A stretch of 64,000 bases of DNA from Anolis carolinensis (lineage: Eukaryota), in contig NC_085846.1 of assembly GCF_035594765.1 (NCBI RefSeq), positions 93,483,190-93,547,189 on the forward strand. Direction: 5' to 3'. Positions 16,813-60,522 of the stretch are shown here, piece after piece; the stretch's first letter is position 1; the number at the start of each line of letters is the position of its first letter. Position numbers and translations under genes: made by a program. Below the pieces are notes generated by a model that searched no databases, was not told the DNA's origin, and saw only the letters and a list, made by a program, of their open reading frames with translations.

Positions 16813-18694
16813 CCTGAGAAAACTATGGTTGTCAGGCGATTTGAAGGCATGTGTATACACACCCAGCGCACTCAAGGCCAAAGGACAATCCATTCCCTAC
16901 CAAACTTTCTCTATGTAAGATCCCCTCTGCCCTATTGTGGAAGTCTTTCTTTGCACTGGAGTTCAGTGCAACATTATTATCATAATCCTTTGGATATGGC
17001 TTCTGAGATTCAGAATTCTGTAAGGTAGGTAAAGACAAACAATGATTACACAAGCTGCCTTCTGCTCAAACACTGGATACAAATAGACCAAGGTTACACT
17101 GCTGTTGCTAATGGATCTGATATTGTCTGTGGTTTACAGTCCTTTGTCTCACAAGGCCAAGAAGGGGAGTGACCTGTGCCCACACTGATATCCCTAGGGA
17201 CTAACTGATCATTTAATGCAGTTTGCAGCTAGATTCAAACTGTGGTGGCCAGACAACAAACACCCATGAAAGTGTGCAAAGCCCTAAATATGCACCAGTC
17301 TCTGTGATTTGTGTAATCACCATTTGGGTTTCAAACTAGTTCCAGGATTCCCTATGGAATCATCAACACAGCAAAACCACTTTTTTCAATACCAATCTGA
17401 AACTGCATTAAATGGTCGGTGTAGATTAGCCTTTGAACAACTCTGACTGATGAAGGAGCCAACGAAGCTTCAAAAGCTGGCATGAAGTATTTTGCACAAC
17501 ATTTATTATTGTATTCATTATAAACTATTGCTAATTAAATGTAGCTCTTTTACAGCATGGCTCTATGTATGGGTATTAAGAAATAAGCAGTCATTAATTT
17601 ATTGGGACTTAAAAAGTAATTCACAACAAATGCATACGCTTCAGCTAGTCTATTGTTTTACCTACTTACCACTTCAGTCAGACTCCTACATTACATAAAA
17701 GCCAGAAATTCAACATGAAATTCAATGTATTTCATCAGAATTAATGATGAATCCAAATTAGAATAAACTCATAAAGATTTGCAATATGTATATTGTGTAA
17801 GGTTCCATTGCAGAAATGTGATTCCTTCTTGTCTTCCAAATACGGCACAACCTCTGTACTGGCATCCACCAAACATGTCCTTTCTGTGAATTTATGTCCC
17901 CTAGGTGATCCTAGGGCATGCTTCCACTAGCCGTCCTCCAGGGTGAATCTATTTTAATCTCTGGTGGAAGTCATTCATTTCAGTAGTCTTGATTATTATC
18001 CATGGTTTTATATTTCCACATTACGTTCAGGAATGTATCCCTCATATATACAGGGGATATATACTATATCTCCAAAATCAAAGGAAACATGTCATCTGTG
18101 ATCTCATAATTTTGATAAGATATACTTGATTTAAGACACAACGGTATCAATAACTGAAAACATGGATAATAGTGACTCTTATACTTTGACTATATTTTGG
18201 CTGGAAGCATACCATAGAATTGCACTGGTAGACCTAGAGATGCCCACAAGCATTTTGGGGGGAGGGGGAATATTTTTTCGAGTGTGGGTAAGTGAAAAGC
18301 CATGGATATCAAATCCATGAATAGTGGAATAATTCTGTATATTTTTAGAAATGACTTCATATCTGTTATATACTCTTAGTCTTAATTGATTTTATAATCT
18401 AATTCATTGTGTTGCACAATATATTGGTACTTCATAAAATTTTAAGTCTGTGGAACCCTGCAGATATAAGATTGCAGCTATTCAGCTGACTAAAGAGATC
18501 GGTCACATAGCTAGCATTCCAACAAATGCCCTTGAACACCTGTCAGCATGTTAGCAAGTTCAAAAAAGCAAGAGATTTTAGATCTTCAAGAGATGAACAA
18601 ATTATACAAAACATTTTATTAGCATTTAAGGTTCAGTGCACAGTTATGTTTGCAATGATAACTGAGCAAATTAATGTTTTGTAAGCCACTCTGA

Positions 18695-55779: not shown

Positions 55780-56300
55780 GAGTGGCGTTCAGAAACCTTT
55801 GACTTAAACCAATATGCTTCGGGATTTAAGATCTACTGGGGAGGCCTTCCTCTCGACCCCACCTCTGTCTCAAGTGCGGCTGGTGAGGACGAGAGAGAGG
55901 GTCTTCTCAATGGTGGCCCCATGGCTTTGGAATGCCCTCCTGAGGGAAATCAGGCTAGCCCCTACCCCCAAGCCTTCTGCACACAAATGAAGACATGCTT
56001 TTCTGACAAGTCTTTGACCATATTTAGATTCTTTACTAATATAGATGAAGACCTTCAGATTCTTTAACAAGCACTTTACAAGACTGAAATCGATTACTGT
56101 TGCTCTCACCTGCAGCAATTGCTGTTTTTAATCAGGGGGCACTGTGAAGTTGTGATGTTTTATGTTGGCTACTTATTGTTTTATGTTATTGTTTTTAGAC
56201 TTTCTGTATTTTGCATATTGCACCTTGAGTGCTTTGTGAGCTGCCCTGAGTCCCTCTGGGAGATGGTGGTGTGGTATAAATAAAGTTTATTATTATTATT
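55780..56300 (+). mobile_element. L2 3' fragment
   Basis: GGTGAGGACGAGAGAGAGGGTCTTCTC... and 3' end GTGAGCTGCCCTGAGTCCC...AATAAAG + TTA tail. Confidence 0.65.
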
Positions 56301-56379
56301 ACTGCTGCTAAACTTTTCAGGGCTCCACAATTGAGTAAAAGGGATCTCATTAGATGTCAGGATCCACAGTTTAAGTAGT

Positions 56380-56476
56380 GGCCTATAGCACATGGTATTC
56401 ACTGGCAATCTCCCATCCAAGTGCTAACCAGGGCTGACCTTACTTAGCTTCCAAGATCAGACTGGGATCTGGTCCT
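56380..56476 (-). mobile_element. 5S rRNA-derived SINE head
   Basis: Reverse complement reads GATCCCAGTCTGATCTTGGAAGCTAAGTAAGGTCAGCCCTGGTTAGCACTTGGATGGGAGA, close to 5S rRNA boxes A/C. Confidence 0.7.
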
Positions 56477-57286
56477 TTAGTGGAGACATATATTCACAAT
56501 TTCACAACCATTTCAATGCATTTTGACAGCAATTAAAATGTCAAAAGCAATAGCCACCATGAGGGCTTTCTGCAGAAAAGCAAACACGATTATAGTACTC
56601 CAACACCCATCAATCCTCACCAATACAGGCATCTGGAAGATTATCCGATTCCCACCCGATTTAACACACGCTTTTGCCACTGAGAACAATGTCTTCCTAT
56701 GGGCCACGGCCATTTGGTTTAATACAGTATGAGCTGAGTACCTGCAGACTTCAGCTGGATCTACACTGCCATATAATGCAACTTGGAACTGCATCGAAAT
56801 GCATTATATGGGCCTACCAAGCATGGGCAAACTTCAGCCCTCTAGGTGTTTTGGATTTCAACTACTGGCTGTTAGAATGGTGGGAGTTGCAGTCCTAAAC
56901 ACTTGGAGGGCCCAAGTTTGCCCATGGACAAAAAATGTCATCTGTGTGAAGAACATCTTTATAAAAAGATTAGTTTGCCCATGCCTACACTGACCATATA
57001 ATGTAATTCCAAAGTGCCCTAAGAGAACATATTTTGCCTCGGATATGAGACACTCAGGGCTCTTCTTATCGGGCCTTGAAAAACAAGAAACTAGATAGAA
57101 GATGCTAGACACTCAGCTTCTGCGCTTGTGTTCTTTGAGGTTCCATCCTAGTGGACAACTGCAGGCCATAGGCTAGAGGATTATGTTAATCGGCAAACTA
57201 ATCAAGATGTGACAGATTGTTTATTGCCATATATGCGAGACAGAGTTGCTTGGGTTTTGTGCTCTTCCACTATGAGGCAACTATGA

Positions 57287-58948
57287 GGAGCCCCATGGCA
57301 AAGTGTGTTAAAGCACTGAGCTGCTGAACTTGCAGACCGAAAGGTCCCAGGTTCAAATCCCGGGAGCGGAATGAGCGCCTGCTGTTAGCCCCAGCTCCTG
57401 CCAACCTAGCAGTTTGAAAATATGCAAATGTGAGTAGATCAATAGATACCGCTCCGGCAGGAAGGTAGCGGCGCTCCATGCAGTTATGCCGGCCACATGA
57501 CCTTGGAGGTGTCTGCGGACAACGCTGGCTGTGCTGTCCTACTTGGCTTTCCCTCCCTTGCTTATTTCCTGGTTGCTGTTCTTGGGAGGAATGTTCCATT
57601 GGCTCTCATTTTGGGGGTGGAGCTTGGGACTCCCCTTTAGGTTTGGATGAGATGGTTCAGCCTGTGAGCTTGCCTCTAAGGCTTTTTCCCCTCCTTTGGC
57701 CATTTCAGAGAAAAACCTCTTAGAGATAGGTCATAGAATTTGGTCTGGGTTCTTTGACCTGGCAAATTCAAACAGGCAACATAAATCACGTACTTACCTT
57801 ATAGTCATATCATAGCTTTAGGTATTTACCTCAAAGATACCAAAGCTTATAGTTCACCTCGTACTTACCATCTTAGCTTATGTAATTACCTCATAGCCTC
57901 ATACTTACCATTACAGATAGAGCTCATCATAGCCACGTACTTACCTTACAGTTTACCTCATAGCCTTGTACTTACCTTATAGTCACATCATAGCTTTAGG
58001 TATTTACCTCATAGCCTCATACTTACCATTACAGATAGAGCTCATCATAGCCACGTACTTATCTTACAGTTTACCTCATAGCCTTGTACTTACCTGTAGC
58101 TTAGATAGTATACCTCATAGTAAAGTACTTACCTTATAGCTTATCACCTTATAGTTTACCTCAGAGTTATTATAGATAGTTCACTATAGCTGGTATTTAC
58201 CACATAGTTATAGCTGATAGTTTACCTCAGAGTCATTATAGTCATTATAGATAGTGCTTATCACAGCCTAGTACCTACCTTTCCTCATAGCTTGTGTGTT
58301 TATCCTTTATAGTCTCTATAGCTTTCATTCTCAATCAATATAGTTTTATTTCTGTATAATTTCAGTGATTTTACCTCATATTATTTCTAATACATTAAAA
58401 GGACTGTTTCCTGTTTTCAATAAACAATATTTTTGGTTATCTTTAATCAGCTTCTAGAGTATTTACTTTGGGGTTTGAGGTATAAATATAAGGTAAACTG
58501 AAGCCGCTTGGGTAGCCAGACCTAGAGATAGCCATTTTCCCCCAGCGTGCCTTCACAGTGATTTATGTCCTGCTCGGCCCTGCCGATTGAATTTGCCTAT
58601 AGAGAGTTGAGAGATAGTGCCCACTCCCTATCAGGAGTGTGTTAAAAAAGTCACTACATCACAGTGACAAGAAAACCTGCGTGGCCCCGCCATGTTTTTG
58701 GTTTGCCTATAGAAATCAAAGATAGTGCCCGCTCCTTTGAGCGTGTGAGTGAGAGAAAAGCACTGTTTCCACAGTGATATAGGTATCCTGTTTGGCCCTG
58801 CCATTTTGAGATTGCTTATTGTAAGATATAGAGCTCTCTCCCTGCTGTGTCTCCCTTCACACTGGCTCTTCGGCTTGGAAATGGAGATGAGCACCAACCC
58901 CCAGAGTCAGACATGACTGGACTTAACGTCAGGGGAAAACCTTTACCT
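57287..58948 (+). mobile_element. Full-length Sauria SINE split by a solo LTR
   Basis: SINE head 57287-57529 and tail 58862-58948 rejoin exactly (GGACAACGCTGGC|TCTTCGGCTT) when compared with the copy at 24235. Confidence 0.9.
57530..58861. mobile_element. Solo LTR (1332 bp) with internal tandem arrays
   Basis: TG...CA termini; 5-bp TSD CTGGC (57525-57529, 58862-58866); AATAAA at 58419 (+); GC/CCAAT-like boxes near 57597-57623; TACTTACC array 57790-58280; ~108-bp repeats 58570-58830. Confidence 0.8.
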
Positions 58949-59509
58949 ATAAGAGATCTAAGCTGCAGGGTGGGTCAGCCAAGCAGATAAACTTGTTTTT
59001 CACCCTACCTGAAGTCTGGTCCCTCACTCTCCATTCGCCAGAGAGACCCGGGAGGTGCGTGGGGCCTCCACATGGAAAGTGTCCTAAGAGAACATATTCT
59101 GCCTCAGATATGGGAAACTCAGGCCCCTTCCACAGTCATATAACCCAGGATATCAAGGCAAAAAAAATCCCACAATATCTGTTTTGAACTGGGTTATCTG
59201 AGCCCCCTTCCACACAGCTGATTAAAATCCCACATTGTCTGCTTTGAATTGGAATAAATGGCAGGATGGACTCAAGTAACCCAATTCAAAGCAGATACTG
59301 TGCGATTTTCTGCCTTGACACTCTGGGTTATATAGTTGTGCGGAGGGGCCCAGAGTCCTCATTGTCACATATTCCAAATCAAAGCAGATATTGTGGGATT
59401 TTATTTTGCTGTGTGGAAGCGCCCTCAATCTATACTATGAAGGAAACAGGCGCGCTTTGAGTGTGTGAGAGAGATATAAGATATAAACCAACATCTCTCT
59501 CCCTCAGCT

Positions 59510-59723
59510 TCCCTCCTCGCCTCTCGTGGTCAAGCCCGGCCTCGCGCGCGGGCGTTGATTGGCCGCCGCGCCACGTTCGTCAGATGGGCAGAGATCGGCT
59601 CAGCGCCGCCGGCGGCGCTGCTGATTGGCCGAGGCGCACCACCTCCTCTCATTGGTAGAGGCGCATCGCCTTCTCTGTAGTCTTCTCAGTGGAGGCGCGC
59701 ATCTTTGGCTGGCTGCTGAGGCG
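59510..59723 (+). promoter_or_regulatory. CYP51A1 CpG-island promoter with multiple inverted CCAAT (NF-Y) boxes
   Basis: ATTGG at 59558, 59624 and 59651; CGTCA half-CRE ~59578; CpG-rich; typical of SREBP/NF-Y-regulated sterol genes. Confidence 0.8.
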
Positions 59724-59885
59724 ATGGCGGTGCTCACTTTGCTGGAGATGGGCGGCTCTCTCCTGGAGAAGGTGGCCTTCGGCGGACCCATCTCCTTCCT
59801 CCTGGCCGCTTCGGCCTTCGCCTTGAGTTTGGGTTACTTGCTGCAGCTGGGCTCCAAAAACAGGCGTCAGTCCAAAGGGAACCAG
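59724..59885 (+). CDS. CYP51A1: CYP51A1 exon 1 (lanosterol 14-alpha demethylase, N-terminal membrane anchor)
   Basis: MAVLTLLEMGGSLLEKVAFGGPISFLLAASAFALSLGYLLQLGSKNRRQSKGNQ resembles the human CYP51A1 exon-1 peptide; Kozak GCGATGG; donor CAG|GTATGG; synteny. Confidence 0.88.
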
Positions 59886-59903
59886 GTATGGATGCATCTA
59901 CAG

Positions 59904-60104
59904 CAGGCCTGGGCAAACTCGGGCCTTCCTCCAGGTGTTTTTGGACTCCGAGGCCCACAATTCCTCACAGCCTCAGGCCCCTTCCTTTTCCCCCTCAGCC
60001 GCTTAAGCGGCTGAGGGGGAAAAGGAAAGGGCCTGAGGCTGTGAGGAATTGTGGGCCTCGGAGTCCAAAACACCTGGAGGAGGGCCCGAGTTTGCCCAGG
60101 CCTG
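59904..60104. mobile_element. Palindromic hAT (URR1-like) MITE, complete
   Basis: CAGGCCTGGGCAAACT...AGTTTGCCCAGGCCTG; centre CCGCTT|AAGCGG; TSD ATCTACAG/GTCTACAG. Confidence 0.9.
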
Positions 60105-60522
60105 GTCTACAGTGCAGAATTGACACAGTTTGACAGCACTTGTAACTGCCATGTCCTCAATGCAATGGGAGTTGGAGTTTGTTGAGGTACCAACCCTCTT
60201 TTTTGGAATTGGGATTTTTGGAATATTTGCATATGTGTAATATGTATACTTTAGTCTCTCAGTTAACCCGAACTCTCAAGATTCGAATAAATAATATCGG
60301 AAATTATGTAAAATGAAACCAGTTTTGTTGGAATGTTTACATGAAGTTAATTTAGCCTAATTTGCTTCAAATTATTGCATTTCAATATTAATATCAAGGC
60401 AATACAGAGCCCTTGGTATAGTATTATTTAGATCTATTTTATTAGTAACTCTCAAGCAACCAGAAACTACATTTATCTGGCACTTACCAATCCCCCCAAG
60501 TGTCACTTAACTGTATCTACAG

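Follow-up and report, generated by a model that had tools for sequence, protein, structure and literature searches.

The tandem array of TACTTACC motifs upstream of a CYP51-like gene in Anolis carolinensis is a family-wide trait of a BEL/Pao LTR and not a feature of the host or of a single locus. In the window, by which the whole 64,000-nt stretch of DNA analysed is meant, the array is best described, in a judgement somewhat above even, as a variable-number repeat at the start of R in a likely self-primed LTR, whose likeness to U1 snRNA is probably a by-product. Six lizard BEL families carry, with good probability, a self-priming signature resembling that of Tf1, and by analogy the BEL/Pao family of the window likely primes reverse transcription with its own RNA.

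The preliminary description had placed eight exact copies of TACTTACC at 57791, 57862, 57902, 57938, 57969, 58020, 58087, and 58126, and all these positions were confirmed; a ninth copy lies away from the array, at 17663. The count of 9 in the window compares with 1.66 ± 1.23 expected from 100 shuffles, a statistic that overstates the evidence because the array copies derive from one unit by tandem duplication, and the eight cores therefore represent one origin, not eight. Near-matches were also present as described (TATTTACC three times, TAATTACC and TACCTACC once each), together with a 10/11 match to the U1 5' end at 58086 (GTACTTACCTG) and a 118-bp duplication, for which TRF gave a period of 118 with 95% matches and identity at 74 of 75 positions between 57901 and 58019. 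The array units are strong donors when read on the minus strand: the array of donors reported there was recovered as eight sites within 57800-58281 scoring at least 8.5/11 against the donor consensus, and by this scoring the minus-strand cluster is the densest donor-like one of the whole window. The proposed identity of the plus-strand motif with U1 held for the 8-nt core and ended there, the flanks being different. No U1 snRNA match at E ≤ 1 was obtained across 56000-60000 in an Rfam search, and the Rfam matches on the window were of hairpin type only, all below the gathering score.

The array lies in an insert that spans 57530-58861 between two CTGGC copies and interrupts a SINE; both flanks of the insert match one contiguous SINE copy elsewhere in the genome. 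The parts of the insert are the following:

57525..57529, no strand: left TSD copy CTGGC, 5 bp, inside the SINE (from the sequence; flanks match a contiguous SINE elsewhere)
57530..58557, plus strand: BEL/Pao LTR, TGTG...CACA, 1,028 nt (family copies end at the same points)
57779..57789, plus strand: predicted self-primer, 11 nt complementary to 58558-58568 (complementarity; RNA folding)
57790..58290, plus strand: variable-number repeat array of the R region, containing 8 TACTTACC cores, unit 1 starting at the predicted cut site
58419..58424, plus strand: AATAAA, likely the LTR poly(A) signal (position shared across LTRs)
58471..58500, plus strand: stretch of U5 containing two weak donor-like sites and showing partial complementarity to array units
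58558..58568, plus strand: primer-binding-site (PBS) position, without TGG, complementary to the element's own LTR
58558..58850, plus strand: start of the internal leader, with three repeats of ~108 nt (58558, 58664, 58774)
58854..58861, plus strand: 8 nt identical to the LTR end (relatives run on into the leader here, the window does not)
58862..58866, no strand: right TSD copy CTGGC (from the sequence)

The AATAAA reported at 58419, after the array, is present, and such a signal lies 90-155 nt upstream of the LTR end in 18/18 LTRs compared. The insert had been taken for a solo LTR. Its LTR origin stands; it is not solo, since 304 nt of PBS, leader, and an LTR-end-like 8-mer precede the second CTGGC. 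The window copy is internally deleted and has no coding part: besides the LTR, it retains 293 nt of leader and 8 nt that repeat the end of the LTR. These 8 nt, at 58854-58861, are likely a 3' LTR remnant left by the internal deletion. The third leader repeat (58774) starts with the exact complement of the primer of an older subfamily. PBS-like units were found tandemly repeated in leaders, both at 58558-58850 of the window and in loci L144 and L127.

Exact LTR end motifs of the family occur 78 and 122 times genome-wide. Both ends were present in 47 distinct copies, among which a TSD of 5 nt was seen in 35 and one of 6 nt in a single copy; of the 11 remaining copies without such a TSD, 6 continue into the leader as in the window. 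Flanks and nested insertions are common to many of the loci L063-L078 (contigs C17-C19, C26, and C88), which indicates segmental copies of one insertion. In L004/L035, an LTR with PBS is followed by an inverted partial second LTR. A candidate full-length element at C1:150932358-150942011 was rejected, being one LTR split by an insertion. The LTR orientation was checked on fuller copies, namely L092, a two-LTR copy with a 5-bp TSD, and L045, in which a gag-like frame is present and a purine tract precedes the 3' LTR; the gag, the polypurine tract, and the primer site agree that the sense strand is plus. The purine-rich GAGCGGGGAG stands immediately 5' of TG in both copies.

Peptidase_A17 was found above the Pfam cut-off in L084 and L090, both of which bear the internal region of the window LTR family. 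The gag of the family is 24-29% identical to intact BEL polyproteins carrying Peptidase_A17, DUF5641, and DUF1759, and the gag of a sister family is 53-54% identical to it. By these protein matches, the window LTR family is assigned to BEL/Pao (Belpaoviridae). Its LTR has TG..CA ends, a length of 1,028 nt within the 0.2-1.2 kb range, and a short TSD, and it shares with Belpaoviridae (Semotivirus) the TG..CA LTRs of 0.2-1.2 kb, the polypurine tract, the 5-bp TSD, and, in relatives of the window element, a gag-pol with the order PR-RT-RH-IN. DIRS/Ngaro, Transib/RAG-like, and MITE readings were ruled out by the 5-bp TSD, the TG..CA ends, inverted ends of only 4 nt, and the Pao domains, and membership of the Tf1/sushi chromoviruses (Ty3/gypsy) was ruled out by pol domains of BEL/Pao type. 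No intact autonomous member of the window family was found among the 150 scored of 1,314 candidates. In the non-autonomous L090 (5562-6710, minus strand) and L092 (2437-3903), a captured host-gene piece with Pfam matches to lipoyl, E3-binding, and 2-oxoacid acyltransferase domains, which we take to be PDHX/DLAT-like, replaces most of pol. The ORFs of L126 and L138 (1,454 and 1,439 aa) still have their gag and integrase ends, and no RT or Peptidase_A17 match was detected in them. Deleted BEL forms appear to be mobilised in trans, because the LTR pair of L126 is 100% identical although RT and Peptidase_A17 were undetected.

The evidence for self-priming comes from the primer site. Immediately 3' of the LTR, the 11 nt at 58558-58568 are perfectly complementary to 57779-57789, a segment that adjoins array unit 1 on its 5' side. 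With a 2-nt bulge, this pairing may continue as far as 57776, and the pair probability predicted for the primer helix in the folded window RNA is 0.91-1.0. In total, 21 loci were examined for LTR pairs, 19 of which had them; 17 of these and the window were tested (n = 18), L130 and L141 being left out as deleted or cut off. A Watson-Crick run of 9-11 nt starts at the first base after the 5' LTR in 17/18 elements, and the exception, L132, has 8 nt, its LTR end having been set one base too far. Control positions gave mean runs of 4.3-5.2 nt and maxima of 6-10, with maxima of 9-10 in 3/18 elements. Pairing at the first eight positions holds throughout 14 copies representing six families (with one G-U in two of them); in these copies, a TGG start at the PBS occurs in none, and the complement is contiguous in the DNA in every case, so that the PBS does not require an exon-exon joint. 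Own primer/PBS pairs scored 9-11/11 and cross pairs 2-9/11, a single cross-family pair having reached 9/11. A compensatory change distinguishes homologous LTRs, namely those of the window (ACATAAATCAC/GTGATTTATGT), of the older copy L093, and of the sister copies L169 and L170, and L133 and L138, whose proteins are 81% identical, have different matched primer/PBS pairs. The primer/PBS helix was predicted in 6/6 folded RNAs (p 0.73-1.0), closing a loop of 768 nt in the window copy and of 330-770 nt in uninterrupted copies. Self-priming is proposed because six families each pair the PBS with their own LTR, using different letters.

Priming by a host RNA (a tRNA fragment or other), with the LTR complement being either what remains of an inverted duplication or a structural hairpin, is highly improbable. 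The ICTV report gives Belpaoviridae a PBS of 18 nt for tRNA-Arg or tRNA-Gly and calls their replication poorly understood (PMC8742986), and the leader of the window element does hold a longer inverted copy of the primer region (inverted repeat I1). However, for each of the six different PBS, the match to its own LTR begins with the base that follows CA, and none of the six families has a PBS starting with TGG, by which a tRNA-type PBS, as described for Belpaoviridae, is judged missing.

Other sources of the primer were considered and rejected. A spliceosomal cut would be marked by GT after the primer, which is present in only 2/6 families. An LTR intron ending at AG|G before the primer was inspected by eye, and the upstream sequence is purine-rich in three families with no consistent donor. 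The PBS of L138 (L138:2024-2835) is itself U1-like (GTACTTACG), and its primer has the sequence of a perfect donor, which overlaps a branch-point motif, TACTAAC. Inr-like motifs were seen by eye 55-80 nt upstream of the window primer, and because of them it is possible that, unlike in Tf1, the RNA does not start with the 11 nt of the primer.

In Tf1, 11 bases pair with the PBS, and cleavage by RNase H falls between the 11th and the 12th base (PMC7175516). By analogy, the RNA of the lizard element would loop back with 57779-57789 pairing with the PBS, RNase H would cut after C57789, and the 5' piece from the cut would prime minus-strand DNA; the remaining RNA would then begin at G57790 (GUACUUACC). 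The predicted cleavage site is thus 57789/57790, and the array units begin at that base. More tentatively, the first bases of the cut RNA may have been re-copied repeatedly by mis-registered first-strand transfer or by slippage, which would yield units starting at that G behind varied spacers. We consider the chances evenly balanced that the array arose by copying anchored at the predicted cut site.

Several counts bear on this origin. In 49/58 arrays, the 9-mer GTACTTACC directly follows the primer, and the base before the core is G in 97/102 contexts, with a mixed base preceding that G. The 5' breakpoints of the repeats peak at the G before the core (30/157, the next highest being 11), whereas 3' breakpoints never rise above 14; the 5' peak is partly circular, as any conserved 9-mer with varied flanks would produce one. 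Repeat D7 begins exactly at 57790. Moreover, family L126 has an unrelated 16-nt array that is also located at the cut site (TRF start 13, cut site 15). The array might instead be an ordinary slippage minisatellite that grew from a short unit spanning the primer junction, its position having nothing to do with strand transfer. Units of 13 nt such as GTACTTACCTCAC do reuse the last letters of the primer, and the two LTRs of the single element L129 (94% identity) differ in the length of their variable-number repeat, which points to instability outside first-strand transfer as well. This explanation appears improbable, given that, in 139/159 internal units, the sequence to the left has no base in common with the primer and that arrays of two unrelated families start at the cut site. 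Selection on the motif also fits the data, because 58/159 internal units share only the 9-mer with unit 1.

The array was found to be preserved in other copies of the family, at least three cores being present in 54/58 distinct arrays. The number of cores per array had a median of 7 and a range of 0-19 in these 58 arrays, about eight of which are segmental duplicates of one insertion. Triple-core matches numbered 399 (overlapping) genome-wide versus 53 for the reversed control. A search for other TE families with TACTTACC arrays yielded no candidate, since all of the 100 matches listed out of the 399 resemble the window family, and the U3 of this family preceded the array in 10/10 further loci checked. 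The array is absent from five other BEL families, among them the sister family, which has homologous LTR landmarks; ACTYACC after the integrase end occurred in 0/30 other BEL loci, and an R array detectable by TRF is absent from four of six BEL families. Within the window family, the exact 8-mer persists amid diverged spacers in 102 distinct contexts, and does so even in copies of ~74-80% identity.

This persistence, together with the strength of the minus-strand donors, is what favours a selected role in splice-site mimicry. A self-primed LTR could have an array selected because its sense units mask the element's own U5 donors or block U1, or, in the antisense version, because U1, recruited by the donors, would steer antisense transcripts into splicing or cause them to be retained in the nucleus; jointly, the two versions are considered unlikely. 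The U5 stretch and the array are complementary in inverted repeats I2, I5, I8, and I12, MFE helices also pair them, and in the predicted window MFE structure array units pair with U5 at p ~0.95. In addition, the sister family also has the AG|GTA site in U5 and the pyrimidine-rich acceptor ahead of its gag ATG, and foamy viruses switch U1 access through RNA structure in R (PMC3694450). On the other hand, the array is missing from the five other families and the core flanks follow the cut site and not U1: the A of U1 before the core occurs in 4/102 contexts and its final G, two bases after the core, in 7/102. An equally good donor, GTGAGT, was hardly sampled (3 variants versus 407 exact cores). 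R-U5 pairing as the function of the array was rejected, as 6/40 shuffles paired as well in the window and from 1 to 32/40 did so across seven LTRs. The RNA data were unstranded contigs of uncertain type from 6 distinct runs, uninformative on RNA ends and splicing; in them, array donors were used by none of the 15 joints listed of more than 1,500, and no GT-AG joint with an array or U5 donor was present among 15 listed of 18, the joints in both lists being SINE or array-length differences.

The suggestion that the LTR, if transcribed on the plus strand, acts as a splicing-control device was therefore borne out in part. The LTR sense is on the plus strand and the element RNA would carry U1-like 8-mers; the splicing-control role was unsupported, in view of 0/30 other BEL loci with ACTYACC, a sister family lacking the array, and flanks that are not U1-like. 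The U1 likeness of the array is probably incidental. A combined reading, in which the bases at the start of the cut genome turned into a U1 mimic, were multiplied, and were kept by selection, coupling priming to splice or poly(A) control, is speculative and rather unlikely; if true, the array would mask its own U5 donor on the sense RNA, make antisense transcripts U1 substrates, and also mark in the genome where RNase H cuts. As a separate observation, L169, L170, L167, and L168 have a strong donor ~47 nt from the pyrimidine-rich acceptor before the gag ATG, and this acceptor is also kept in the leader of the window family.

The neighbourhood of a CYP51A1 gene had been proposed for the array. 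CYP51-like exons do follow, the first of which is given below, and the Pfam p450 match reached only E = 0.005, below the cut-off; the CYP51 name of the downstream gene is our assumption, from sequence motifs.

59724..59885, plus strand: first coding exon of the CYP51-like gene (context)

A host use, with upstream-antisense RNA of CYP51A1 stabilised or spliced through the array donors into a lncRNA towards LRRD1, was the other suggestion made for this array, and it is very unlikely to apply. The donors are real on the minus strand, about 1.3 kb from the CpG island, and a minus-strand AATAAA at 58345 stands just before them. However, the array arrived with a lineage-specific insertion into a SINE and is older than that insertion, and an earlier minus-strand AATAAA at 59400 intervenes between promoter and array, 1.1 kb before the array and preceded by no strong donor. 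As regards the host gene, nothing unusual emerges: between LRRD1 and CYP51A1 lies a deleted transposon copy that is probably inert, although it may affect promoter activity or polyadenylation there. Two long palindromic MITE-like elements occur at 59150-59430 and 59907-60105, one upstream of the CYP51-like promoter and the other just inside intron 1, and the promoter-side palindrome gives spurious miRNA-family matches in Rfam. The promoter also contains a 27-nt tandem duplication (59624-59676) with an inverted CCAAT box in each unit. A weak 5S rRNA-like match at 56380-56493 on the minus strand (28 bits, below the gathering score of 38) is possibly a SINE head.

The closest known parallel is found in Tf1/Tf2 of Schizosaccharomyces pombe and the Tf1/sushi group, which, according to parts of PMC7175516 and PMC6317226, likewise have ~11 nt of LTR complement to a PBS directly after the 5' LTR and, as in the window family, no tRNA TGG at the PBS. 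The likeness is known from sequence complementarity, and the cleavage site in the lizard elements is predicted. Unlike the self-primed Ty3/gypsy elements of Tf1/sushi, the lizard elements are BEL/Pao (Peptidase_A17, DUF5641, and DUF1759), and they differ from Tf1 in a loop of 330-770 nt in uninterrupted copies and in a repeat array beginning at the predicted cut site. Tf1/sushi, Tcn1, and TAR/Houba/Osr-1 are named as self-primers in PMC6317226, PMC5006619, PMC3601003, and PMC5445492; for the plant Ty1/copia elements TAR/Houba/Osr-1 and for Tcn1, self-priming was inferred from the same kind of complementarity (PMC6317226, in part), in other superfamilies and hosts than here. U1 suppression of LTR poly(A) sites in foamy virus and at the HIV-1 major splice donor resembles the present case in having U1-related motifs near a poly(A) signal, and R-region structure could gate the motifs of the window array in the same way. 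Those viruses have single sense-strand donors, whereas the sites of the window family are antisense, multimerised, and confined to one family.

A BEL/Pao family of 397 copies has been reported from the anole (PMC3118150, in part). Term searches found no mention of PBS, priming, or tRNA in the accessible parts of two BEL/Pao papers (PMC554778 and PMC3118150). No literature report of BEL/Pao self-priming was found, and an earlier description is possible in Frame 2001 (Suzu), Butler 2001, or Repbase Reports; none was found of U1-like LTR arrays in a search that lay outside subscription papers and Repbase Reports. If the proposed self-priming is true, BEL/Pao would be the third LTR superfamily among self-primers, and this mode of priming would explain why PBS searches based on tRNAs miss such elements. 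Several of the six families are young and expressed-looking, and six co-varying primer/PBS pairs in one vertebrate genome make priming directly testable. Arrays that start at the predicted cut site would, moreover, let that site be read from the genome sequence.
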